From contig JBNKUM010000050.1 in assembly GCA_050298595.1 (NCBI GenBank), positions 1 to 17,248 on the forward strand: a stretch of 17,248 bases of DNA. Reading direction: 5' to 3'. The DNA is from Gammaproteobacteria bacterium (GTDB lineage: Bacteria > Pseudomonadota > Gammaproteobacteria > GCA-001735895). Positions 6,733-17,248 of the stretch are shown one piece after another (the first letter of the stretch is position 1; the number at the start of each line of letters is the position of its first letter). The position numbers and the translations under genes were made by a program. The notes under the pieces were generated by a model. It worked only from the letters and a program-made list of their open reading frames with translations, had not been told where the DNA came from and made no database searches.

Positions 6733-7357
6733 AGGTATTTAGTTGATTAGGTGTTAGCACAATCCGAACGGATTCCATTTTGATCCTTTATGCAACATGG
6801 ATCAATATAATCAACCAGAAGCACTGCCCACCACCTGTGGGACATCTAAAGATCTGGCAGAGAACAGCATTCACTCAAAGCGTAAGGTAAAGCCTGTTAA
6901 AGTCTCTGCATTTGTTCAGGTTCAATCCGATGTTTCTTTAACCTCTCCAAAACAACCCCGCATCAAGCTGACGAGGTATTGTTACTATCTGCTAAAATTG
7001 TACCAATTGATAGTCACTATGGAGCTTTTTGGTAACTTCCACCCTGTCCTTTCACATAATTTACAAAAGGTAAATCGGAGGCTGAGCCGGTGGCTTACCT
7101 TTTGTTAATTATTCTATGGGGTAAATCTTGATAAGATTCAGCTCGTAGAGGGATTCACCTATTTGGAGAATAGATATATTGACTGTAATGGTCGACGAAA
7201 CTGTGAGTTACCCTCTAACACGAGCGGTCAACTGCGGAATCCAGGTTTAACTTTCTCTCCGCACGTATTAGCCCTGGAGTTACCCAGGATACAAATCATT
7301 TCTCTCATTGCCTCAAATCACAACCCTGTTACTATCTCCAAAACACTGGAGATCATC

Positions 7358-9178
7358 ATGACTGGAGAAATCCTTTTCATATTTTGCCTGTTAACTGTGA
7401 CCATCGGCTTATTTATCTGGGACCGTATCCGGATGGATATTGTCGCTTTAATGGTGGCAATGACATTGGCTTTCTCTGGAGTGATCAGTGTTTCTGAGGT
7501 TTTTTCGGGGTTTGGTAATTCCGTAGTCATAATGATTGCGGGGTTATTTGTTGTTGGTGAAGGTCTATTTCGTACCGGTGTAGCTGCCGCAGCTGGTCAG
7601 TGGATTCTGAATATGGGGGGTAACAGCGAGGCCCGCTTACTGTTGTTTTTACTCCCGGTTATTGCGACCTTATCAGCTTTCATGAGTTCGACTGGAGCAG
7701 TTGCTCTACTAATACCGGTAGTCCTCAGTCTATCTCGAAAATCTGGTATGTCTCCCTCTAAACTACTAATGCCATTGGCTTTTGCATCTCTGGTAGGGGG
7801 AATGTTAACGCTGATTGGTACTCCCCCTAATATCGTAGCCAGTGAGACCTTACTGCAGGCGGGCTTCGCCCCCTTTGCATTTTTTGATTTCACGCCTATC
7901 GGTCTGGCTATACTGGTATTCAGTATGTTTTATCTGATTGTTATCGGTCGACGCTTACTGCCCAATGTTGATATCAGAAACCCCGATCAACCCCATCCCC
8001 ATTTACATGAGTTTGCTGAGCGTTATGGCATCAGTGATCAGTTGCACTTGCTATCGGTGCCGGCAGATTCGAATCTTATCGGTGAGACTGTTGTCACTGC
8101 GGGACTACGTACTAACTATGAGGTCACGGTATTCGGCATACGTCGTAAAGGTCGTTTAACCTCGATGCTATTACCGGTAACTATAGAAACCATAATCAAA
8201 AAAAATGATGTGCTGATGGTTTATGCTGATTCGAAACAAATCACCTCGATCTGTGAGGCTTTCAGTCTGACGTCTGAAGTTTTTCCCACGGGCCTTATCA
8301 GAAAAATGCATAATGAGTTTGGGGTGGCTGAGGTAATGTTACGTCGCGGATCTTCACTGGTAGGGAAAACAATCAAAGAGGGCAGGTTCAGAGAAAAATT
8401 TGGACTCAGTGTGATTGGTATTTTACGTGATGATGAAGCACTAACGACTGATTTTGATGGCACTGCTCTCAAATTTGCAGATAGCTTATTACTTGCCGGT
8501 GGCTGGAACTTTATAGAGAAGTTAAACGACAGGCGCGATTTTATCGTTATCGAAACTCCCGCAGAAATGGTGGAAGCACCTTCTCACGCCAGTAAAGCTC
8601 CATTGTCGTTGCTCATCATGCTATTGATGCTGATCTCTATGACTATGGGTTGGTTACCCACCCTGACGGCAGTTATGGCAGCTGCCCTGGCCATGGTGAT
8701 TACCGGTTGTGTCACTATGGAAGAAGCCTATAAATCACTTAAACCCTCAAGTCTAATACTGATAGCCTGTATGCTTCCGGTGGCGATTGCGATGGAAAAA
8801 ACAGGAGCAGCCAGGCTGATTGTCGATCAACTGGTAGTTGCTTTTGGTGGAGGTAGCCCTATGGCTCTGGGGGCAGCCCTGTTTATCTTTACCTCGATCT
8901 TCAGTCAGTTTATCTCTAATACTGCGACTACTGTGCTGGTGGCCCCAATTGCAATCAGCGCCGCACAATCTCTGGGCGTCAATCCACAGCCCTATATGAT
9001 GATGGTTGCTCTGGCGGCATCAACTGCCTTTGCGACGCCTATAGCATCGCCGGTGAATACTCTGATCCTGGCGCCTGGAAAATATACGTTTTTAGATTTT
9101 GTCAAAGTAGGGGTACCGCTTCAAATTGCAGCGATGATTATTGCGCTGCTGTTAACCCCGCTCATTTTTCCGTTTTAA
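7358..9178 (+). CDS. SLC13/CitMHS-type (DASS-related) permease with two TrkA-C (RCK_C) domains
   Basis: RBS GGAG at 7348-7351 supports ATG 7358 over the track's TTG 7163. Motifs: R.DIVAL, LSAFMSSTGA, GGMLTLIGTPPN, a central soluble region with two TrkA-C repeats (SNLIGETV; SSLVGKTI), SQFISNTAT, FATPIASPVN and Y.F.DF.KVG.PL. Confidence 0.9.
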   Translation: MTGEILFIFCLLTVTIGLFIWDRIRMDIVALMVAMTLAFSGVISVSEVFSGFGNSVVIMIAGLFVVGEGLFRTGVAAAAGQWILNMGGNSEARLLLFLLPVIATLSAFMSSTGAVALLIPVVLSLSRKSGMSPSKLLMPLAFASLVGGMLTLIGTPPNIVASETLLQAGFAPFAFFDFTPIGLAILVFSMFYLIVIGRRLLPNVDIRNPDQPHPHLHEFAERYGISDQLHLLSVPADSNLIGETVVTAGLRTNYEVTVFGIRRKGRLTSMLLPVTIETIIKKNDVLMVYADSKQITSICEAFSLTSEVFPTGLIRKMHNEFGVAEVMLRRGSSLVGKTIKEGRFREKFGLSVIGILRDDEALTTDFDGTALKFADSLLLAGGWNFIEKLNDRRDFIVIETPAEMVEAPSHASKAPLSLLIMLLMLISMTMGWLPTLTAVMAAALAMVITGCVTMEEAYKSLKPSSLILIACMLPVAIAMEKTGAARLIVDQLVVAFGGGSPMALGAALFIFTSIFSQFISNTATTVLVAPIAISAAQSLGVNPQPYMMMVALAASTAFATPIASPVNTLILAPGKYTFLDFVKVGVPLQIAAMIIALLLTPLIFPF

Positions 9179-9207
9179 TTCCTGTTACTGGTGCTTTAAG
9201 AATCAAT

Positions 9208-9226
9208 TTTTACGCAAATTTTACGC
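9208..9226 (+). promoter_or_regulatory. KdpE/OmpR-type tandem direct repeat TTTTACGC-aaa-TTTTACGC upstream of trkH
   Basis: Two exact 8-mers with an 11-bp period (9208-9215 and 9219-9226), and a third degenerate copy TTTTAACGC at 9251-9259. A candidate -10 TATAGT lies at 9275-9280. Confidence 0.65.
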
Positions 9227-9307
9227 CTTGATGTCGTTTCGTATATAGATTTTTAACGCCAGAAAGTTGAATCATATAGTCTGAAATTATTCAGGTATTT
9301 GATTCCA

Positions 9308-10756
9308 ATGATTAAGCTTTTACGGCCTATCCTCTACATCTGTGGGATATTGGCCTTAATTATGGCCGCTTTAATGCTGCTGCCCGCTGGATTTGCCTAT
9401 TTCACCCATGACCAGGAATTACAGCCTTTTCTTGATTCGGCTGCAGTTACGGCCGTATCAGGGTTAACCCTGATCCTGATATTCAGGTCATCCACAATCT
9501 CTCTAGCAACCCGTCAACTTTATCTACTCACCACTTTTAGCTGGATACTGCTATCGCTTGCGGGTTCACTGCCACTTATATTCGCACATCACCCCTTATC
9601 GCTGGTTGATGCCGTATTTGAGTCGGTTTCAGGCATTACTACCACGGGTTCAACGGTGATGAGTCATCTTCAAACCTTGCCTCCGAGCATACTGTTGTGG
9701 CGGTCTTTGCTGCAGTGGGTAGGTGGCCTGGGGGTGATCGGGATGGCGGTTTCGATTCTACCCTTTTTACAGATAGGGGGGATGAAGCTATTTCAGACAG
9801 AATCTTCAGACTGGTCTGAAAAATCACTACCTAAATTCCATGGTCTGGCGCGAGCCTTACTGGTTAGTTATCTGTTAATCACCCTGTTATGTGCTGTGAG
9901 TTACTGGATGGGGGGGATGTCGATCTTCGATGCCATCAATCATGCGATGACGACAGTCTCTACCGGCGGCTATGCGACTGATGACCGCTCTATGGCACGT
10001 TTCGGTCCCGCAATACTCTGGATATCAGTGCTCTTCATGATAGCGGGAGCATTACCTTTAACCTTTTTTATCCGATACTTCACCGCACGCTCGATACATT
10101 ACCAGGTAGATCAACAGGTGATGGGGTTTTTACTGATAACCGCTTCGCTGATTCTTTTAATGACGCTACAGTTGATGTCGGTAAACACTTTGCCACCATT
10201 TGAGGCTCTGACTCAGGCGGCATTCAATATCACATCGGTAATCACTACGACCGGATATGCTTCATCTGATTACACCAACTGGGGGCAATTCAGTATTGCA
10301 TTGTTCTTTATTGTAACCTTTATCGGTGGCTGCTCGGGTTCTACCAGTGGCGGGATGAAGGTATTTCGCTTTCAGCTGTCTTTTCTATTTCTACTCAACC
10401 AGTTAAAAAAACAGGTCCATCCACATGGCATATTTCTAATCAAATATAATGGTAAACGCATCGAAGATGATATTACCGCATCGGCTATTGCTTTTTCATT
10501 TATGTTCTTTATTGCGCTGGCGATTACCACATTATTGCTAACGGCGTTTGGTGTTGACTTTATCACCAGCTTTACAGGCTCCGTTACTGCTTTAACCAAT
10601 GTTGGCCCCGGGTTAGGGGATATCATCGGTCCTGCAGGCAACTTTGCACCGCTGCCTGATTTTGCAAAATGGACGCTGTCTTTTGCAATGATTCTAGGAC
10701 GACTGGAACTATTGAGTGTAATCGTATTATTCTCTACAGTTTTCTGGAAACGATAA
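9308..10756 (+). CDS. trkH: Trk system K+ uptake membrane protein (TrkH/TrkI type)
   Basis: Four pore loops with filter glycines (SGITTTGST, TVSTGGY, VITTTGY, LTNVGPGLG), plus LLWRSLLQWVGGLG, the gating loop GGCSGSTSGGMK and GRLE. ATG 9308 is preferred over TTG 9299. Confidence 0.95.
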   Translation: MIKLLRPILYICGILALIMAALMLLPAGFAYFTHDQELQPFLDSAAVTAVSGLTLILIFRSSTISLATRQLYLLTTFSWILLSLAGSLPLIFAHHPLSLVDAVFESVSGITTTGSTVMSHLQTLPPSILLWRSLLQWVGGLGVIGMAVSILPFLQIGGMKLFQTESSDWSEKSLPKFHGLARALLVSYLLITLLCAVSYWMGGMSIFDAINHAMTTVSTGGYATDDRSMARFGPAILWISVLFMIAGALPLTFFIRYFTARSIHYQVDQQVMGFLLITASLILLMTLQLMSVNTLPPFEALTQAAFNITSVITTTGYASSDYTNWGQFSIALFFIVTFIGGCSGSTSGGMKVFRFQLSFLFLLNQLKKQVHPHGIFLIKYNGKRIEDDITASAIAFSFMFFIALAITTLLLTAFGVDFITSFTGSVTALTNVGPGLGDIIGPAGNFAPLPDFAKWTLSFAMILGRLELLSVIVLFSTVFWKR

Positions 10757-10763
10757 TCAGGTT

Positions 10764-12284
10764 ATGCATCCATACTCAGCGCGCGATAGAGTCCTATTCT
10801 GGGTGATGCCCTGGCTAGCACCTTTGCTGGCAACATTAATTTCCTGGGCATTATCGCCCATATTACCCAAAGCGCATTACTCCATGATTTACCTGGCAGG
10901 GGTTTTATTTACGGCGGTATTTACCCGGGTAAAACCAGCCCTGGCCTGCGCTGTGTTGAGCTTTCTGGCCTATAACTTTTTTCATTTTGAACCACACTTC
11001 AGTTTTTATATGGTGCATCAGCAAGATATCCTGACGGTTGCACTGTTTATTTTGGTAGCCTTCGTTACAGGGCATCTGGCAGCGCGTTTACGCGAACAGG
11101 TAGTAGCGCTGGAGGATAGTGATCGTTGGAACAAGCATCAAATGCTGCTGGCTGAGGAGCTGTCCAGTTGTGTCAATGGTGAGTCGGTGATCAGGACTCT
11201 GGAGCAGCATCTGCAAACCAGTTTCGAGATTAATAGCGTCGTTTTATATAGGGACAATGCGACAGATGAGTTTCGATTGCTATGTGGTGAATTACCAATT
11301 CCGTTGCATGAATCAACTCCTAAATGTAGCGACTCGGTGGCTGAGGTATTGCTCGATATACACAGCAAATCAGTATTGATTACCTTCTGTAGCAGTAGAA
11401 GTTGTCTGGGGCAAATAATGATTAAGCTTTCATATGCTCTGGATAATGGACAAAAGCATCAGCTTGAAGGTTTTACCGGGCTGGCTCGTCTCGCATGGAG
11501 TCGAGTGGTATTGAATGAAGTGTTGCGTTCAGAAACTCTGGTGAAAGAACGCGAGCAGTTACGCTCCGCTTTACTGTCCTCTATATCGCATGATTTACGC
11601 ACACCGCTGGCGACTATGATCGGTTCAGTATCCACGCTAATTGAATTGCATGATGCGCTGGATACCTCCCAGCAGGAAGAATTATTGCAAAATACCCTGA
11701 GTGAAGCGCAGCGACTGAATCGCTATATTCAGAAATTACTGGATATGACCCGCCTGGGGCATGGTGAACTATCTCTTGATCGAGACTGGGTCGGTATTGA
11801 CGATATACTCAGTGTCGTCATCAAGCGTAGTAAAAGCCTGCTCAACGGCAGTAGTATTAAAGTCGATCTGCAACCTGATCTGCCTTTGCTACATGTCCAT
11901 CCAGCGCTGATAGAACAGGCTGTTTTTAACGTATTAGAGAATGCTATCCGATATGCACCCAAAGATACCTCTATTACCATCAAAGCATATTCAATTGATG
12001 ATCGATTACAGATCGACATCCACAACTTTGGCCCGGTGATACCGGTAGAAAGCTGGAACAGTATCTTTGATATGTTCTTTACCTTTGCGCATGGTGATCA
12101 GGACTCAGCAGGCACAGGGCTGGGTTTGGCCATCTGCCAGGGTATACTCGGTGCGCATGGCGGTCTTGCTTCGGTGATACATAGCAGTATCGAAAAAGGA
12201 ACAACCTTAAGGATTTCACTACCACTTAAAGAGACTCAACAATCCGTTCAGGAAATCAATGATGACACGCATACTGATAATTGA
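10764..12284 (+). CDS. KdpD-like sensor histidine kinase lacking the N-terminal KdpD/Usp cytoplasmic region (DUF4118 TM - GAF-like - HisKA - HATPase)
   Basis: Begins directly with four TM helices (MIYLAGVL...LAYNFFHFEP.FSF). H-box EQLRSALLSSISHDLRTPL, N-box NVLENAIRY, G2 GTGLGLAIC. It is 506 aa, versus roughly 900 aa for full-length KdpD. Confidence 0.88.
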   Translation: MHPYSARDRVLFWVMPWLAPLLATLISWALSPILPKAHYSMIYLAGVLFTAVFTRVKPALACAVLSFLAYNFFHFEPHFSFYMVHQQDILTVALFILVAFVTGHLAARLREQVVALEDSDRWNKHQMLLAEELSSCVNGESVIRTLEQHLQTSFEINSVVLYRDNATDEFRLLCGELPIPLHESTPKCSDSVAEVLLDIHSKSVLITFCSSRSCLGQIMIKLSYALDNGQKHQLEGFTGLARLAWSRVVLNEVLRSETLVKEREQLRSALLSSISHDLRTPLATMIGSVSTLIELHDALDTSQQEELLQNTLSEAQRLNRYIQKLLDMTRLGHGELSLDRDWVGIDDILSVVIKRSKSLLNGSSIKVDLQPDLPLLHVHPALIEQAVFNVLENAIRYAPKDTSITIKAYSIDDRLQIDIHNFGPVIPVESWNSIFDMFFTFAHGDQDSAGTGLGLAICQGILGAHGGLASVIHSSIEKGTTLRISLPLKETQQSVQEINDDTHTDN

Positions 12285-12963
12285 AGATGAACCACAGATT
12301 CGTCGCTTTCTAAACATCAGCCTGGGATCGCAGGGCTATTCTATTCTGGAAGCTGCTGATGGTCATTCAGGCCTGGAGCTGGTTGCACTGGAAAACCCTG
12401 AACTCATCATACTGGATCTTGGTCTGCCCGATATGGATGGTCAGGATGTGCTCAAGGGCCTGCGCGATTTTTACAAAGGCCCCATTATCGTACTGTCGGT
12501 ACGCGATAGCGAGAGGGAAAAGGTGGTTGCACTGGATAATGGTTGTAACGATTATGTCGAGAAGCCATTTGCGGTGAATGAGTTACTGGCACGTATACGT
12601 GCTGTACTTCGTACCTTTTCAGGTATCGAAAAACCACCCACCGGTTTTGACGATGAGCATCTTAAAATCGATCTGTTAAACCGCCGCGTGGTGCTGGCAG
12701 ATGAAGAGGTTCATCTATCGAAAAAGGAGTATGAGTTGCTGAAAACACTGATTAGTTATCCGGGCAAAATACTCACCCAGCAACATCTGTTACGTGATAT
12801 CTGGGGGGCGCATCATACTGAAGATACCCATTACCTGAGAGTGATTATTGGGCGATTGAGAAACAAACTGGAAGATGATCCCACCAATCCGCAATATATC
12901 GAAACAGTGGCAGGAGTAGGATATCGGTTTATCGGTGTAGAAAGCGGTACGGTTATAAACTGA
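12259..12963 (+). CDS. kdpE: KdpE-like OmpR-family response regulator
   Basis: ILIIEDEPQIRRFL, ILDLGLPDMDG, PIIVLSVR..E.EKV.ALD.G..DYV.KPF, GKILTQQHLLRDIWG..H.EDTHYLRV...LR.KLEDDPT.P. Overlaps the end of the kinase gene. Confidence 0.9.
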   Translation: MMTRILIIEDEPQIRRFLNISLGSQGYSILEAADGHSGLELVALENPELIILDLGLPDMDGQDVLKGLRDFYKGPIIVLSVRDSEREKVVALDNGCNDYVEKPFAVNELLARIRAVLRTFSGIEKPPTGFDDEHLKIDLLNRRVVLADEEVHLSKKEYELLKTLISYPGKILTQQHLLRDIWGAHHTEDTHYLRVIIGRLRNKLEDDPTNPQYIETVAGVGYRFIGVESGTVIN

Positions 12964-12969
12964 GGCGCT

Positions 12970-13536
12970 TTAAAAATCAGCGAAGCAGTCGGCTTTATTC
13001 TTGCACAGACCAAAATTCATCCCAATAGATAATCGGTATTTGTCAGAGCGATTTTCATTCACCGAATGCGGTGTGCTGGGGGCAAAAAACACATAGTTTC
13101 CCTGAATGGGTTTCAGTTCAATTATTTCATCTTTGGTTTTAAGTACCAGATTGCCTGAATCCTCGGGTACCGTTATATAGATAACGCCAGAAAGCAGTTC
13201 ATCAATGTCGTCATGGGTATGCTGGGTTGTTAAATGACCGGGAGGCATGTAGTTAAACCAGAAGCCAACACATAGCTCATCGACGTTTATATCTAAAATA
13301 CTAGCTGCAACATTGAGTGCTTCGCTGACCAGTTGTTTCAGATCAGGGTGGCTGTTGCGATTGATATAAATATTCTCATAACGCCCATGAAAAAAATGGG
13401 TTTTGTGTAAAGTGTCTGAAGAGTTTTTCAGTTGTTGTTGCAGAAATTCGTCAATAGACCCCAGTTGTTCGGATGATAACTGAGTGTAGCGACGTAAGTA
13501 GGGGGAGTGTCCAGAAAAGAGGGTAGAACCAGCCAT
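12970..13536 (-). CDS. Putative 2OG-Fe(II) oxygenase-family protein
   Basis: WFN.MPPG..T..HTH....LSGVIYI...GNL...FAPSTPHSV..N.S...RLSIGMN: a double-stranded beta-helix with H-x-H...H ligands and an R-x-S motif. Confidence 0.8.
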   Translation of the reverse strand: MAGSTLFSGHSPYLRRYTQLSSEQLGSIDEFLQQQLKNSSDTLHKTHFFHGRYENIYINRNSHPDLKQLVSEALNVAASILDINVDELCVGFWFNYMPPGHLTTQHTHDDIDELLSGVIYITVPEDSGNLVLKTKDEIIELKPIQGNYVFFAPSTPHSVNENRSDKYRLSIGMNFGLCKNKADCFADF

Positions 13537-13562
13537 AGTTCAAATCACAGTAAAGCATTTGG

Positions 13563-13601
13563 ACTAACGGAGCAGATTAATCTGCTCCGTTAGTTTTTTT
13601 T
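13563..13601 (+). terminator. Intrinsic terminator-like hairpin (32-bp perfect palindrome + T-tract)
   Basis: ACTAACGGAGCAGATT|AATCTGCTCCGTTAGT at 13563-13594, followed on the + strand by a T run. It lies 21 bp beyond the stop of the minus-strand 63-aa gene. Confidence 0.7.
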
Positions 13602-13615
13602 ACTTTTTTTCGGAA

Positions 13616-13807
13616 TTACTTCCAGTTTTCGAAATTGTCAGTATTTTTTTCCTGACCATCTTCATAACCGGCAGAATAAGCGTCATTTACATTTTGTTCT
13701 TCTCGCTCTGGATGACCCAGGTAACCACCTTGCCAGCCGATGATATATTGTTCCTGTACACCCATTTCTTCCATCTTTGTGGTCGCATCACGATAAGCTT
13801 GATCCAT
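13616..13807 (-). CDS. Alvin_2107-family small protein (associated with sulfur-globule oxidation)
   Basis: Strong RBS GAGGAG. 63 acidic residues with Y......ME..GV...YI.GW.GGYLGHP.REEQ....AY.AGY.DG, recognised as the Alvin_2107 family pattern. The nearby dsrS supports the call. Confidence 0.75.
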   Translation of the reverse strand: MDQAYRDATTKMEEMGVQEQYIIGWQGGYLGHPEREEQNVNDAYSAGYEDGQEKNTDNFENWK

Positions 13808-13991
13808 AATAATCTCCTCAGATTCAGATAATAAAAGATCGATTTAACATGTAGTTCGCCTGTTAATCGGTAACCACACTACGAAAAATGAGCGTACTTT
13901 ATAGAAAGTTTGTAGGGTTTTTAATATCCCTATTGGGGGGATAATGTGCTCGCATTGTAGATAAACGACCCATCAGGGGTATTCGACAATC

Positions 13992-14005
13992 AGTCATTAA
14001 TGACT
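13992..14005. promoter_or_regulatory. 14-bp perfect palindrome AGTCATTAATGACT upstream of the Sel1-MoxR-VWA cassette
   Basis: Self-complementary, ending 37 bp before ATG 14043, within a divergent intergenic region. Confidence 0.4.
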
Positions 14006-14042
14006 ATTATCTATCCTTTACTGATACAACAGGTTCATCATT

Positions 14043-14468
14043 ATGCCTACCGATAACGATATGAATTTCATCAGCGGCATGTCCGCATTCGAAGCCAAAG
14101 AGTTCGCAAGAGCCGTTCAGTTTCTGGTGCCATTTGCCGAGAAGGGCGATCCAGATGCCCAGCACAGGGTGGCTATCATGTATCAGAATGGTCTGGGTAT
14201 GGTACGTAAACCTGAAGAAGCTTTCTACTGGATGAAGACTGCTGCAGAGCAGGGCCATGCAGTGGCACAGCACGGGCTGGGGTTTATGTATATGGAAGGC
14301 GACTGTGTCGAAAAAGATAGTCAGAAAGCCATCGAATGGTTTAGTAAAGCCGCTGATCAGGGGCTGGTAGGTTCTTTGACGACACTGGCGATGATGTACG
14401 ATGAAGGTAATGGCGTCGAACAGGACAAGGAAAAGGCTAAAGAACTTTACGCAAAGGCAGGCTTTTAA
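14043..14468 (+). CDS. Sel1-like repeat (SLR/TPR) protein, no signal peptide
   Basis: Three 36-aa SLR units: GDPDAQHRVAIMYQNGLG..., GHAVAQHGLGFMYMEGDC..., GLVGSLTTLAMMYDEGNG.... The stop overlaps the next start (TAATG). Confidence 0.92.
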   Translation: MPTDNDMNFISGMSAFEAKEFARAVQFLVPFAEKGDPDAQHRVAIMYQNGLGMVRKPEEAFYWMKTAAEQGHAVAQHGLGFMYMEGDCVEKDSQKAIEWFSKAADQGLVGSLTTLAMMYDEGNGVEQDKEKAKELYAKAGF

Positions 14469-15511
14469 TGCGTCCATCTCATCTAGCCAGAGTACTCAAT
14501 GAAGAGGTTCTAAGTACACAGAAAGGGCACCACACACCGGTAATGCTTTGGGGGCCACCTGGGGTTGGAAAATCACAGATTATCCTGCAGATAGGCGAGC
14601 GCCATGACCTGCCGGTCATCGACATTCGACTATCGCAGATGGAACCCAGTGACCTGCGCGGTATTCCCTTCAAACTCGATGACAAGGTCGAATGGGCCGT
14701 ACCATCCATGCTACCGGATGCAAAGCTTCACGGTGAAGCAGGCATCTTGTTTCTGGATGAAATCAATTCAGCAGCACCTTCGGTATCCGCCGCTGCCTAC
14801 CAGTTGATCCTGGATCGTAGACTCGGTAATTATCAGGTACCTCAGGGCTGGGCCATCTTTGCTGCGGGCAATCGTCAGGGTGACCGGGGCGTTACCTATG
14901 CCATGCCAGCTCCATTAGCCAATCGTTTTTCGCATTATCAAATTGATCTGAATCTGGATGACTGGGTTGCCTGGGCTTACAGCAATGGCATCGATGAACG
15001 CATTATCGGCTTTTTGCGTTTCCGCCCTGAGTTACTGTTTGATTTTGATCCCGCGCATAACCCGGTGGCCTTCCCATCGCCTCGCTCCTGGGAATACGCG
15101 CATCGTGCCTTACAGAAATTCATCAACTTCCCCGATCTTTTGCTAGGTTCGCTTCAGGCCTGTGTAGGACAGGCTGCGGGTATTGAGTGCCACGCCTTTA
15201 TCGAAAGTCTGGATCAAATGCCTGATCTGGATAAGATCATAAGCGGTGAAGATACTAAAGCGCCAGATGAAATTGACTTGCAATATGCAGTTGCCTCTGC
15301 GCTGGTAGGCCGCGCCATTCGTGCTAAGGGCAGTGAAGAAGCATCCAGCGTATTTGGCAATATACTCAAATATGCGGCCTGTTTCCCGCAACGTGAAATG
15401 GGTGTGATGCTGGTTTCTGATATGCATCGAGCCATTGGTAACGATCTGTTTGAAGTCGCTGAATTTGCCGAATGGGCGGATTCGATTGCAGATCTGATCC
15501 TTTACGACTAA
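14468..15511 (+). CDS. MoxR-like AAA+ ATPase
   Basis: Walker A GPPGVGKS, DIRLSQMEPSDLRGIP, Walker B ILFLDE, sensor I AAGN, Arg finger LANRF and sensor II SPRSW. Confidence 0.92.
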   Translation: MRPSHLARVLNEEVLSTQKGHHTPVMLWGPPGVGKSQIILQIGERHDLPVIDIRLSQMEPSDLRGIPFKLDDKVEWAVPSMLPDAKLHGEAGILFLDEINSAAPSVSAAAYQLILDRRLGNYQVPQGWAIFAAGNRQGDRGVTYAMPAPLANRFSHYQIDLNLDDWVAWAYSNGIDERIIGFLRFRPELLFDFDPAHNPVAFPSPRSWEYAHRALQKFINFPDLLLGSLQACVGQAAGIECHAFIESLDQMPDLDKIISGEDTKAPDEIDLQYAVASALVGRAIRAKGSEEASSVFGNILKYAACFPQREMGVMLVSDMHRAIGNDLFEVAEFAEWADSIADLILYD

Positions 15512-15522
15512 GTTGCTTCGTT

Positions 15523-16905
15523 GTGCAGGACTCACTGGAAGCTATTGAAAACAAACTCAGTGCAGCACGCACACGTCTGATTCTGGATAAACCCTTCCTG
15601 GGCGCGCTGGTGTTACGCCTGCCTTTACAGGCTGCAGATCCTTCATGGTGTGCGACTACTGGCACTGATGCGCGTAAGTTTTATTACAATCCCGAATATA
15701 TCGAAGCGTTGAAAGCCGAGGAAACCCAGTTTGTGCTGGCTCATGAAGCGCTGCATTGTGCTTTATCACATTTTGCGCGGCGAGGTCATCGCATCAAACA
15801 TCGTTGGGATATCGCCTGCGATTATGCCATTAATCCCATCCTGCTCGACGAAGGCCTGACAGCGCCGCCAGGCTCTCTGGTGATGAAAGAATACAAGGGT
15901 ATGACTGCGGAGGAGATCTATCCTCTGATCAAGGATAACGACCACTCAGAGACACTTGATCAACACCTCTACGATAAACAGGATCAAACCAGCGAAGGTG
16001 GACAGGACAAGCAGCAAAATCCACTTGAACAGCAGTACAAAAAAACCGAGTCAGGAGGTGAGGGGCAGGGAGAACAGCCTCAGGAGCAAAAGTCTTCCGG
16101 TGATAAACCCTCCGAATCCGAAGGGCAGGGGCAGGATAGAGATCATGATCCAGAGCAGCAGAAATCAGGTTTGCCCAAACATAATGCTGATGAAGACCTG
16201 CAGCATCCGAATCCGACTGAAGCAACAGAGCAACCGTCTCAAACAGCTCAACCTGAGCCTTTAACCGAAAGCGAAAAAGACGAATTACAGGTGCAATGGC
16301 AGCAACGTCTGGCAGGCGCCGCACAACAGGCACAACAGGCAGGTAAGCTGGCTGAAGGCATGGCTCGCATGATTGACTTCTTTCTACAGCCAACCTTGCC
16401 CTGGAGAGTATTACTGGCGCGTTACATGAATAGTATCTCGCGTGATGATTACAGCTACACCCGTCCTTCCAGTCGGCGTGGAGACCCTGCCATCTATCCC
16501 AGCCTGCGTAGCCCACAGATGAATGTTGTGGTAGCTGTTGATGTGAGTGGATCAATCAAGCAGGAAGAGTTAAACGAATTTATCGCAGAAGTGGACTCTC
16601 TCAAGGCCCAGGTAAGGGCAAGGGTTACTCTGATCACCTGTGATTCGAAAATCACCGGAGACAGCCCCTGGGTCTTCGAGGCCTGGGAGTATTGCCAGTT
16701 ACCGGAGAAGGTCATTGGTGGTGGCAGTACAGATTTCTGTCCTGTGTTTGAATGGGTGGATGAAAATGATATACGACCAGACCTGTTGATTTACTTTACC
16801 GATGCAGAAGGCAAGTTTCCCGAGTATGAATCCAGCTATCCCAGTATCTGGCTGGTGAAAGGCCGTAAAGCTGTTCCCTGGGGGGAGCGGATTCAGTTGA
16901 ATTGA
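15523..16905 (+). CDS. DUF2201-type protein: N-terminal HEXXH metallopeptidase-like domain, disordered linker, C-terminal VWA domain
   Basis: TDARKFYYNP, VLAHEALHC (HEXXH), WDIACDYAIN, a Q/E/S/P-rich linker, MIDAS DVSGS, GGGSTDF and YFTDAEG. Probable start is GTG 15523, just after the ATPase stop, not ATG 15472. Confidence 0.88.
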   Translation: MQDSLEAIENKLSAARTRLILDKPFLGALVLRLPLQAADPSWCATTGTDARKFYYNPEYIEALKAEETQFVLAHEALHCALSHFARRGHRIKHRWDIACDYAINPILLDEGLTAPPGSLVMKEYKGMTAEEIYPLIKDNDHSETLDQHLYDKQDQTSEGGQDKQQNPLEQQYKKTESGGEGQGEQPQEQKSSGDKPSESEGQGQDRDHDPEQQKSGLPKHNADEDLQHPNPTEATEQPSQTAQPEPLTESEKDELQVQWQQRLAGAAQQAQQAGKLAEGMARMIDFFLQPTLPWRVLLARYMNSISRDDYSYTRPSSRRGDPAIYPSLRSPQMNVVVAVDVSGSIKQEELNEFIAEVDSLKAQVRARVTLITCDSKITGDSPWVFEAWEYCQLPEKVIGGGSTDFCPVFEWVDENDIRPDLLIYFTDAEGKFPEYESSYPSIWLVKGRKAVPWGERIQLN

Positions 16906-17022
16906 TTATATTAACTTCGAAGCATACGAAGAACATGAAGGGTGTGTTTTTTGGTGGTTTGAAAAAGATCGTTTGTAACTGTTATCGCCCGTTCGTTTTT
17001 GGGGGCTAAAAAAGACAATTTA

Positions 17023-17098
17023 AACCACAGAGATCACAGAGCACACAGAGTTTACAAAGCATGAATAAACATATCTTCCTTCGTGATCTTCGTGGTTA
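17023..17098. repeat. Small imperfect-palindromic intergenic repeat (REP/MITE-like)
   Basis: The left arm has three CACAGAG units with a 9-bp period (17026, 17035, 17044). The right arm CTTCGTGATCTTCGTGGTT reverse-complements to AACCACGAAGATCACGAAG, versus left AACCACAGAGATCACAGAG. Confidence 0.65.
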
Positions 17099-17107
17099 AA
17101 AAATAAT

Positions 17108-17248
17108 ATGCAACTATCCAACGAAGACAACCTGCGATTAAACGTGCTGCTGGCGCAGGACCTTAAAGCTGTGCGTATTGATGAATCTAAAATGATTGTC
17201 TATGCATTGACTGCAAAAGGCGATGTTAAGGTTCAGCTCAATCCTAAC
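17108..17248 (+). CDS. dsrS: Sulfur oxidation protein DsrS, 5' end (runs off the right edge)
   Basis: Not in the ORF track. ATG 17108 is open to the window end: MQLSNEDNLRLNVLLAQDLKAVRIDESKMIVYALTAKGDVKVQLNPN. This matches the DsrS N-terminus M.LS.ED.LRLNVLL....A.RIDES.M......G...V.L.P. Confidence 0.8.
   Translation, partial: MQLSNEDNLRLNVLLAQDLKAVRIDESKMIVYALTAKGDVKVQLNPN

Follow-up and report, generated by a model that had tools for sequence, protein, structure and literature searches.

What would lead a bacterium to keep the genes for an AAA+ ATPase and for a protein that combines a HExxH motif with a VWA domain directly in front of dsrS? The question is raised by a contig of 17,248 nucleotides (hereafter the window; JBNKUM010000050.1, C50 in our numbering) from a gammaproteobacterial genome assembly (GCA_050298595.1; 5.49 Mb in 119 contigs), the end of which is taken up entirely by the region described here. 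For some two decades DsrS has figured in textbook accounts of the dsr operon without a known function, and Grimm, Franz and Dahl are said to have found in 2011 that dsrS mutants oxidise stored sulfur more slowly, which is a partial phenotype. With a probability of roughly 0.6, the best overall explanation of our results is that the ATPase, the HExxH/VWA protein (hereafter the VWA protein) and DsrS are an accessory part of the reverse-Dsr oxidation of stored sulfur in Gammaproteobacteria, working by an AAA+/VWA-type mechanism. Passages of a study of Allochromatium vinosum state that the function of DsrS 'is not resolved' and that dsrS has its own promoter in this organism (PMC3368242). Excerpts of other papers place the gene 'elsewhere in the genome' for Thioalkalivibrio (PMC5328954) and, for Sulfurifustis and Sulfuricaulis, away from the dsr cluster (PMC5024460); the accessible part of a recent survey of dsr genes only names it (PMC11406059), and the ATPase and the VWA protein come up in none of these passages. 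No description of a link between an ATPase/VWA pair and DsrS was found in the accessible parts of the literature outside subscription journals.

The pair and dsrS are encoded on the forward strand. The ATPase gene (14468-15511) encodes a 347-aa protein of the Pfam AAA_5 (MoxR/midasin-like) type, and the GTG start of the VWA gene (15523-16905) lies 11 bp past its stop; the VWA gene encodes 460 aa counted from this GTG and matches the Pfam models DUF2201_N and DUF2201. A spacer of 202 nt (16906-17107) with inverted heptad-repeat arrays at both sides separates it from dsrS, the first 47 codons of which (17108-17248) are present. Ahead of the ATPase gene stands a Sel1-repeat gene (14043-14468, forward strand), the TAA stop of which (14466-14468) overlaps the ATPase ATG (14468-14470) as TAATG, and across a divergent intergenic region of 235 bp (13808-14042) follows an Alvin_2107-like gene on the reverse strand (13616-13807; NCBIfam NF049856). 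An earlier note, made from the letters of the window, had listed all of these genes; they are present as it described them, and the coordinates confirm the overlap, the 11-bp gap and the length of the divergent region.

The last open reading frame (ORF) of the window is dsrS, as judged from its sequence relatives. It begins at 17108 and runs off the contig at 17248, and its 47 codons mark the limit of the assembly and are no evidence of a truncated gene. The 47 residues share 97.9% identity with the beginning of a 372-aa protein encoded on another contig of the same assembly, C31 (88% identity of the DNA over 265 nt). The C31 protein in turn aligns over 99% of its length, with 52% identity, to a protein that NCBI names 'sulfur reduction protein DsrS' (E 1.2e-116). 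A DsrS homologue was also located 11.4-11.8 kb 3' of dsrA, on the same strand, in five genomes. We accept the ORF as dsrS because of the identity with the C31 protein, the relative named by NCBI and this position at the end of the order dsrABEFHCMKLJOPNRS. Of 8000 scored candidates, 3735 database proteins fall into the family of the C31 protein at E <=1e-5, and neither the window fragment nor the full C31 protein matches a Pfam or NCBIfam model.

To profile the genes across the class, we used an evenly drawn sample of 300-301 genomes from about 230 families (at most two per family) and searched it for the VWA protein, the Alvin_2107 family, dsrA (model TIGR02064) and DsrS. The VWA protein was matched in 87 of 300 genomes, dsrA in 93 of 301 (87 above the cut-off) and DsrS in 81 of 301. 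Five weaker VWA matches (E 5.9e-7 to 1.8e-41) were set aside as probable paralogues by a cut chosen post hoc (E >1e-45), and all five genomes are without matches to dsrA, DsrS and Alvin_2107. The strong VWA orthologue is thereby found in 82 genomes of 69 families, 77 of them dsrA-positive, and in 5 of the 207 dsrA-negative genomes, the other 202 being without it. Three of these five exceptions (G077, G251, G258) are 72-86% complete, and the VWA match of a fourth (G135) is 41-50% identical.

The association with DsrS is closer still. Among the 93 dsrA-positive genomes, 77 possess both the VWA protein and DsrS, none possesses the VWA protein without DsrS, 15 possess neither, and a single genome (G076) has a match to DsrS alone, which carries an internal stop. 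Five families contain both genomes with and genomes without the two genes, indicating that these were gained or lost jointly more than once and arguing against shared ancestry alone. The earlier note had named profiling across rDsr-positive and rDsr-negative Gammaproteobacteria as a test beforehand; the linkage to dsrS and Alvin_2107 is indeed kept, the orthologues are rare outside dsrA-positive genomes, and the idea of a dedicated reverse-Dsr module thus receives strong support from gene neighborhood and phylogenetic profile alike. The identification of dsrS also held, whereas its treatment as a mere flank of the cassette did not, since the co-occurrence of the VWA protein and DsrS is complete among dsrA-positive genomes. 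From these comparisons, the ATPase, the VWA protein and DsrS are likely to act as a single unit in the service of Dsr-type sulfur oxidation.

Gene order points in the same direction. A scan for close relatives with the VWA protein (one genome per species) yielded 69 loci with 52-98% identity, a list that covers close relatives only, includes several short contigs and cannot by itself separate function from ancestry. By their database names, all 69 belong to sulfur-oxidising Gammaproteobacteria, among them Thiothrix, Thiolinea, Cocleimonas, Candidatus Thiodiazotropha, Sedimenticola, tubeworm endosymbionts, Chromatiaceae and Ectothiorhodospiraceae. By tblastn with the window proteins, DsrS was detected in 20 of these loci, Alvin_2107 in 26 and Sel1 in 20. 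The twelve closest loci retain the full order of a 2-oxoglutarate (2OG) oxygenase gene, Alvin_2107, Sel1, ATPase, VWA and DsrS; full-length dsrS stands 3' of the VWA gene in close relatives, and CysG comes next after dsrS in 13 of the 69 loci. Other sulfur-related neighbours are SoxY and SoxZ (18 loci each), rhodanese (16) and DsrC-like proteins (8), and further recurrent neighbours are an M48+TPR peptidase directly 3' of the VWA gene (21), a DUF6866/Sfum_1244-family protein (15) and an unannotated 194-aa protein beside Alvin_2107 (26).

At the level of the class, dsrS lies within 1.5 kb 3' of the VWA gene in 38 of the 82 genomes (32 families), and DsrS was present in 37 of the 80 loci that were mapped. 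The ATPase gene adjoins the VWA gene in at least 74 of these 80 loci, was found as a separate ORF in three more, and three loci end at the VWA gene. Apparent VWA-DsrS or ATPase-VWA fusions (frames of 657-730 aa in three genomes) were rejected as artefacts of taking the longest ORF, separate ATPase ORFs being present. Four kinds of context are repeated among the mapped loci. Context A consists of DUF6866, the 194-aa protein, Alvin_2107 and a TrpD/YbiB-like gene, followed by Sel1-ATPase-VWA-DsrS, in some cases a 188-aa protein, and CysG; the window is a variant of it. In context B, the ATPase-VWA pair stands among genes for HtpG, an S4-domain protein, NUDIX, a response regulator, HDOD and GGDEF proteins, thioredoxin and molybdenum cofactor (Moco) biosynthesis, and Alvin_2107 and dsrS are paired elsewhere. 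In context C, the genes around ATPase-VWA-DsrS are unrelated ones; two genomes, both from one family, have it directly 5' of dsrA on the same strand. In context D, Alvin_2107 is followed by ATPase, VWA and M48 genes and, further on, by SoxYZ. That the Dsr link of the pair is conserved and not a local accident is strongly supported by these comparisons of sequence and gene order.

Several observations weigh against a Dsr-dedicated unit or limit its reach. With the five weaker VWA matches included, the dsrA-positive share is 77 of 87, and the sampled genomes are related to one another, meaning that the counts overstate their independence. The fifth exception among the dsrA-negative genomes (G167) is 100% complete and possesses the VWA protein, DsrS and Alvin_2107, with no dsrA match at E 1e-20; perhaps the assembly misses dsrAB, or perhaps the unit does not need DsrAB to work. 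Conversely, the 15 dsrA-positive genomes of the class without both the VWA gene and dsrS show that the unit is dispensable for Dsr-based oxidation, and 11 of the 16 dsrA-positive genomes without the VWA gene keep Alvin_2107. A sample of the phylum (251 genomes) contained the VWA orthologue only in the window's genome and in one further member of the class, and none was found at E 1e-20 in 53 dsrA-positive genomes of other classes; profile searches for DsrS and the VWA protein in five of these 53 (99-100% complete) found neither protein. The unit is thus tied to Dsr in this class and does not accompany DsrAB universally. In loci of the A. vinosum type, the pair sits with the M48 peptidase and soxYZ, and dsrS lies elsewhere. 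The protein family is large and mostly found outside sulfur oxidisers, phages included, and its fold is silent on the client. Finally, the support is all comparative in kind. As to the locus of G167 itself, Alvin_2107, Sel1, ATPase, VWA, DsrS and CysG stand there in the standard order. A search of the phylum sample for DsrD (PF08679) matched 0 of 251 genomes and, its controls likewise giving nothing, does not bear on whether the 53 dsrA-positive genomes are of the oxidative or the reductive type.

The motifs of the two proteins of the pair are conserved. The ATPase reaches 39.9 bits with Pfam AAA_5 (cut-off 22) and carries the Walker A motif GPPGVGKS and the Walker B motif FLDE. In an alignment of 44 sequences from different families, with a mean column identity of 79%, the residues G29, P31, G32, G34, K35, S36, D97 and E98 are invariant, as are N135, R136, R140 and R153. 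The earlier note had called the protein an intact MoxR ATPase: the motifs are intact and the AAA_5 assignment holds, whereas both models for MoxR proper stay below their cut-offs of 27 (AAA_3 18.8 bits, bpMoxR 19.2 bits), and the name MoxR applies to it in a broad sense only. The nearest solved sequence is the AAA module of midasin (E 1.3e-7), the only NCBIfam match is a sub-threshold one to IteA_antiphage (E 0.0016), and among the PHROGs the ATPase matches phrog_1297 over its full length (E 4.2e-92).

The VWA protein is composed of an N-terminal DUF2201_N domain (PF13203; 159.9 bits, cut-off 23.2), an acidic low-confidence linker of about 100 residues and a C-terminal DUF2201/VWA domain (82.3 bits). 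The N-terminal domain contains HEALH as its HExxH motif and is a putative zincin-like metallopeptidase; the C-terminal domain contains DVSGS of the metal-ion-dependent adhesion site (MIDAS). Among 53 sequences, the MIDAS residues D340, S342, S344 and D427 are invariant and T403 is conserved in at least 90%; of the HExxH residues, H78 is invariant, and at least 90% of the sequences keep H74 and E75. Two cysteines, C43 and C99, never vary either, and C79 and C373 reach at least 90%. The conservation indicates that purifying selection acts on all catalytic motifs of the pair, Walker A and B, HExxH and MIDAS. The structural model, with a predicted local distance difference test (pLDDT) of 79.9, consists of a helical N-domain, a disordered linker (pLDDT <50 at residues ~157-227) and a VWA fold. 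Residues 330-460 form this Rossmann-like fold, the best match of which is 9doc_A (Z 12.8, root-mean-square deviation 2.5 over 129 residues) among 104 chains at Z >=8; the VWA domain of NorD in the NorQ-NorD complex (9qh8_G) aligns to residues 331-460 at Z 11.2. Such VWA-domain matches filled the rows of the fold searches and masked the N-terminal zincin domain. The VWA protein has no NCBIfam match, and a profile of its family matched no PDB sequence.

DsrS differs in character. Its model (pLDDT 91.7, predicted template modelling score 0.86) begins with a small domain of an N-terminal helix and a three-strand alpha/beta part and continues with about 20 helices. D7, D25, E101 and W121-W122 are among the residues that never vary, and residues 66-84 form a conserved loop with the consensus GSPGGYPVYLKRWTRMGQ; cysteine occupies none of the invariant columns. 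The model and the alignment suggest that DsrS serves as a scaffold or adaptor rather than in redox chemistry or sulfur transfer. Foldseek with the DsrS model found no PDB match at E <=0.001, and the best match of a wide VIA-align search had Z 7.1 over 83 residues; the remaining rows were generic helical repeats with Z 5-6, within the noise of helical proteins, and the assignment of a fold was dropped. Prediction of a VWA-DsrS complex from alignments gave a score of 0.00, which speaks neither for nor against binding.

A mechanism can be outlined from known systems. In the AAA+/VWA pairs NorQD, CbbQO and CoxDE, in the chelatases BchID and CobST and in midasin, a ring ATPase works on a client that is held by a VWA/MIDAS domain. 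Here, the ATPase ring would supply mechanical work, the VWA domain would dock a client via the MIDAS metal site, the conserved zincin domain could cleave peptides, and DsrS, as an all-helical repeat protein with no conserved cysteines, would be the client-specific adaptor or scaffold; Sel1 could be an extra adaptor in some lineages. The most likely client would be a cytoplasmic Dsr component, either DsrAB with its sirohaem-type cofactor or the DsrC/DsrAB complex, to be matured, re-activated or cleared by the unit. We infer the binding of the proteins to one another, the identity of the client and the activity by analogy. An accessory factor of maturation or re-activation fits better than a core step of the pathway because dsrA-positive genomes without the unit exist, because CysG is a frequent neighbour and because the phenotype reported for dsrS mutants is partial. 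It can be speculated further, as a possible though tentative specification, that the three proteins form a machine in which DsrS recognises the client and which matures or re-activates the reverse dissimilatory sulfite reductase. Such a 'DsrAB activase' or maturase could insert or swap the sirohaem-type cofactor, or extract DsrC that has stalled in DsrAB, and would, if real, explain the slower oxidation of stored sulfur that is reported for dsrS mutants.

The neighbouring cysG also suggests a rather improbable alternative, in which the pair is a chelatase-like system of the CobS/CobT or BchI/BchD kind that inserts the sirohaem or siroamide cofactor of DsrAB, with DsrS as the carrier. CysG follows dsrS in 13 of the 69 close and 10 of the 80 class-level loci, and on C31 dsrS is followed by the N-terminal domain of sirohaem synthase (cysG); the ATPase weakly matches phrog_249, labelled 'porphyrin biosynthesis' (E 2.3e-10), and the BchD VWA model 2x31_A aligns at Z 10.4. 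The CysG link is, however, limited to one locus type, the VWA fold match is generic, and the mapped neighbourhoods contain no large CobN/BchH-like subunit. CysG is moreover generally known to have a chelatase function of its own, and the conserved HExxH domain has no counterpart in chelatases.

Context D raises a different possibility, which we regard as unlikely, namely that the pair serves the periplasmic Sox carrier SoxYZ or thiosulfate oxidation, for example by acting with the adjacent M48 peptidase to mature SoxYZ. In 18 of the 69 close loci, SoxY and SoxZ are encoded about 3.5-4 kb 3', and the M48+TPR peptidase comes right after the VWA gene in 21. In passages of the A. vinosum literature, Alvin_2108-2112 are grouped as 'sox cluster one', of which only SoxY and SoxZ (Alvin_2111/2112) are Sox proteins (PMC3368242), and the M48 peptidase Alvin_2110 rises together with soxYZ on pyrite (PMC11267869). 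In the sample drawn by family, by contrast, SoxY or SoxZ was present in 3 of 80 loci and the M48 peptidase in 6, versus 37 for DsrS, and the complete co-occurrence of the VWA protein with DsrS in dsrA-positive genomes argues against a Sox role as well. Neither the ATPase nor the VWA protein has a signal peptide in its sequence, whereas SoxYZ is known to be periplasmic.

Slightly less likely again is a general housekeeping role, with the Dsr link left by shared ancestry and frozen gene order in one gammaproteobacterial branch. It would suit the high conservation of the ATPase (60-77% identity across families), the occurrence of related pairs in many other bacteria and in phages, and the roughly one third of class loci in which the pair stands among HtpG, S4-protein, NUDIX, adenylate kinase, thioredoxin and Moco genes with no adjoining sulfur gene. 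A housekeeping pair is hard to reconcile, however, with its presence in only 5 of 207 dsrA-negative genomes of the same class, with the joint retention or loss of the VWA protein and DsrS, also within the five families, and with the recurrence of dsrS adjacency in at least four different surrounding contexts.

The wider family comprises 5561 database relatives of the VWA protein at E <=1e-10 among the 8000 candidates scored. Among the PHROGs, the VWA protein matches phrog_1314 over its full length (E 1.3e-88), and tblastn found homologues in 653 phage records at 25-33% identity, the carriers including N4-like phages of about 70-78 kb and jumbo phages of 350-390 kb. The Dsr-linked genes are one specialised cellular branch of a large uncharacterised ATPase/VWA-peptidase family. 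That the pair is a mobile, phage-derived or anti-phage module, as its full-length matches to phrog_1297 and phrog_1314 and the 653 phage records could suggest, is most improbable given the low identity to the phage copies, the chromosomal, syntenic position across 69 families, a window free of integrase and phage genes, and PADLOC defence models that yield only marginal P-loop matches (E ~5e-4), for which reason a defence system was rejected. The phage homologues of the VWA peptidase are labelled variously as 'HNH endonuclease', 'putative metallopeptidase', 'hydrolase' or hypothetical, and the label 'HNH endonuclease' of phrog_1314 is not supported by the HExxH/VWA architecture.

Around this core, the Sel1 protein is a lineage-specific accessory, and the conserved third partner is DsrS instead. 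The 141-aa protein has three repeats (Pfam Sel1, PF08238; 111 bits, cut-off 30.7) and, being without an N-terminal hydrophobic stretch, is probably cytoplasmic. Its gene lies directly 5' of the ATPase gene in only 20 of the 69 close and 18 of the 80 class-level loci, and its place as a core part of the cassette, as the earlier note had it, must be given up.

The Alvin_2107 family, recognised only as a small protein linked to sulfur oxidation, is a partner that is often linked yet separable. The window member is a small acidic protein of 63 aa that scores 94.9 bits with the NF049856 equivalog hidden Markov model (cut-off 60). The family occurs in 80 of 300 class genomes, all above the cut-off and 77 of them dsrA-positive. 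In 21 of the 82 genomes (19 families), no more than 6 kb separate its gene from the VWA gene. Another 20 genomes (17 families) have Alvin_2107 and dsrS side by side in divergent orientation, with the pair not standing between them. The coupling is looser than that of DsrS: among dsrA-positive genomes, 11 have the VWA protein without Alvin_2107, and 11 the reverse. In the divergent region (13808-14042), three sigma-70-like sites were found versus 5.3 expected by chance; one of them, TCGACA-16-TATTAT (13983-14010, forward strand), lies ahead of Sel1 and is a consensus match only. Recurrent company of Alvin_2107 was seen in ten loci. One such neighbour is a DUF6866 protein, which scores 461.8 bits with the NCBIfam Sfum_1244 family; a second, unannotated and about 190 aa long, is encoded convergently to Alvin_2107; and the third, a TrpD/YbiB-like member of the glycosyltransferase-3 family, stands between Alvin_2107 and Sel1. 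Between dsrS and cysG lies another unannotated protein, of 188 aa.

The spacer between the VWA gene and dsrS (16906-17107) contains inverted arrays of heptads of the CACGAAG/CACAGAG type versus the CTTCGTG type and folds as RNA with -54.1 kcal/mol (z -2.75). The arms co-vary, reading CACAGAG/CTCTGTG in four of the close loci and CACGAAG/CTTCGTG in the window and three others. Arrays of CAC[AG][AG]AG and its complement occur about 20 times per strand in the genome, versus none for three scrambled control heptads. The spacer is probably an RNA stem or a dispersed palindromic element, similar to repetitive extragenic palindromes, ahead of dsrS; it may control dsrS as an RNA stem, and it may explain the break of the assembly. 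Other arrays lie at C31:120-320, C8:6117-6260, C15:35673-35800, C67:66875-66920 and C78:944-1000. The first 196 nt of C31 (C31:1-196) recur at the end of contig C111 (C111:6618-6920), where the repeated stretch contains the tail of an unannotated ORF, of which C31 shows 45 aa and C111 81 aa at 95.6% identity, and the C31 copy stands directly 5' of the full-length dsrS; these contig ends suggest that the repeat broke the assembly. Besides the C31 protein, no other DsrS fragment was found in the assembly of the window, and the C31 gene may be a second copy, a strain variant in the bin or the continuation of the window broken at the repeat. In a metatranscriptome run (5% of sampled words), six contigs 90-95% alike come from a relative and not from the window's strain. 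They cover Alvin_2107 (word depth ~16), pieces of the 3' end of the ATPase gene, both ends of the VWA gene and the dsrS leader; contigs of this kind cannot reveal transcripts or operon structure.

On the other side of Alvin_2107, a strong hairpin with a 16-bp stem and a following T-run (13561-13596) separates it from a 2OG-Fe(II)-oxygenase-like gene on the reverse strand (12970-13536; PF13759, TIGR02466-like). The oxygenase gene is kept 3' of Alvin_2107, beyond the hairpin, in the twelve closest loci, and a distinct 2OG oxygenase family (PF13640) recurs 5' of DUF6866 in eight class-level loci. Farther upstream (7163-12963) lie genes for a CitMHS/TrkA_C transporter, a TrkH-type cation transporter, a DUF4118 histidine kinase and an OmpR-type response regulator; the last two resemble a KdpDE-style potassium-sensing pair beside Trk-type, not Kdp-type, transport genes, and the regulator adjoins the 2OG gene only in the four closest relatives.

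Among studied organisms, a close counterpart of the locus appears to be that of A. vinosum, where Alvin_2107 is the namesake of the family of the upstream gene. Three loci of context D match the layout of Alvin_2108-2112 as given in the published passages, and by this synteny Alvin_2108 and Alvin_2109 would be the orthologous ATPase and VWA pair. The dsrS gene of A. vinosum is Alvin_1265, at the end of the dsr operon, in an excerpt of another study (PMC10892978); judged from the synteny type, the Sel1 gene would be absent from the A. vinosum locus.

The phage pair phrog_1297/phrog_1314 belongs to the same two-protein family over its full length, at only 25-33% identity, and is uncharacterised too; the PHROGs hold no equivalents of DsrS, Sel1 or Alvin_2107 beyond a generic Sel1 family. 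Midasin offers a model of mechanism: the VWA domain aligns with the MIDAS domain of MDN1 at Z 10.6 and with that of Rea1 at Z 10.1, and Rea1/Midasin (MDN1) is the model for an AAA_5 motor pulling a MIDAS-held client. It differs in being a single giant eukaryotic polypeptide of ribosome assembly with no peptidase domain, and the likeness is one at the level of domains only. A PDB sequence search at E 1e-3 returned midasin only, with no match to NorQ, CbbQ or RavA.

In organisation, the window pair resembles NorQ/NorD, which acts in the insertion of Fe_B into the nitric oxide reductase cNOR, and CbbQ/CbbO, a Rubisco activase. In each case, the gene for an AAA_5 ATPase stands next to that for a protein with a C-terminal VWA/MIDAS domain, and the genes are linked to a single enzyme system of respiration or energy metabolism. 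The likeness is one of architecture only, the window pair having no NCBIfam match for NorQ/NorD, CbbQ/CbbO, RavA/ViaA or CoxD/CoxE. Unlike NorQ/NorD and CbbQ/CbbO, the window unit has an N-terminal HExxH zincin domain on the VWA protein, a domain that NorD and CbbO to our knowledge lack, and a conserved third member, DsrS. A protein that is kept or lost together with a motor and a peptidase/adaptor, and is often encoded right after them, makes a genetically testable hypothesis for DsrS. If it is true, the unit would provide the first physiological context for the DUF2201 (HExxH-VWA) and AAA_5 family, uncharacterised in bacteria and phages, in an ecologically important metabolism, the genes occurring in sulfur oxidisers that live freely as well as in tubeworm and clam symbionts. 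A DsrAB activase would then compare to the Rubisco activase CbbQO, and what appears to be new here is a putative AAA+/VWA remodeller to which a zincin domain is fused, which has a third subunit of its own and which would act in a pathway new for such systems.

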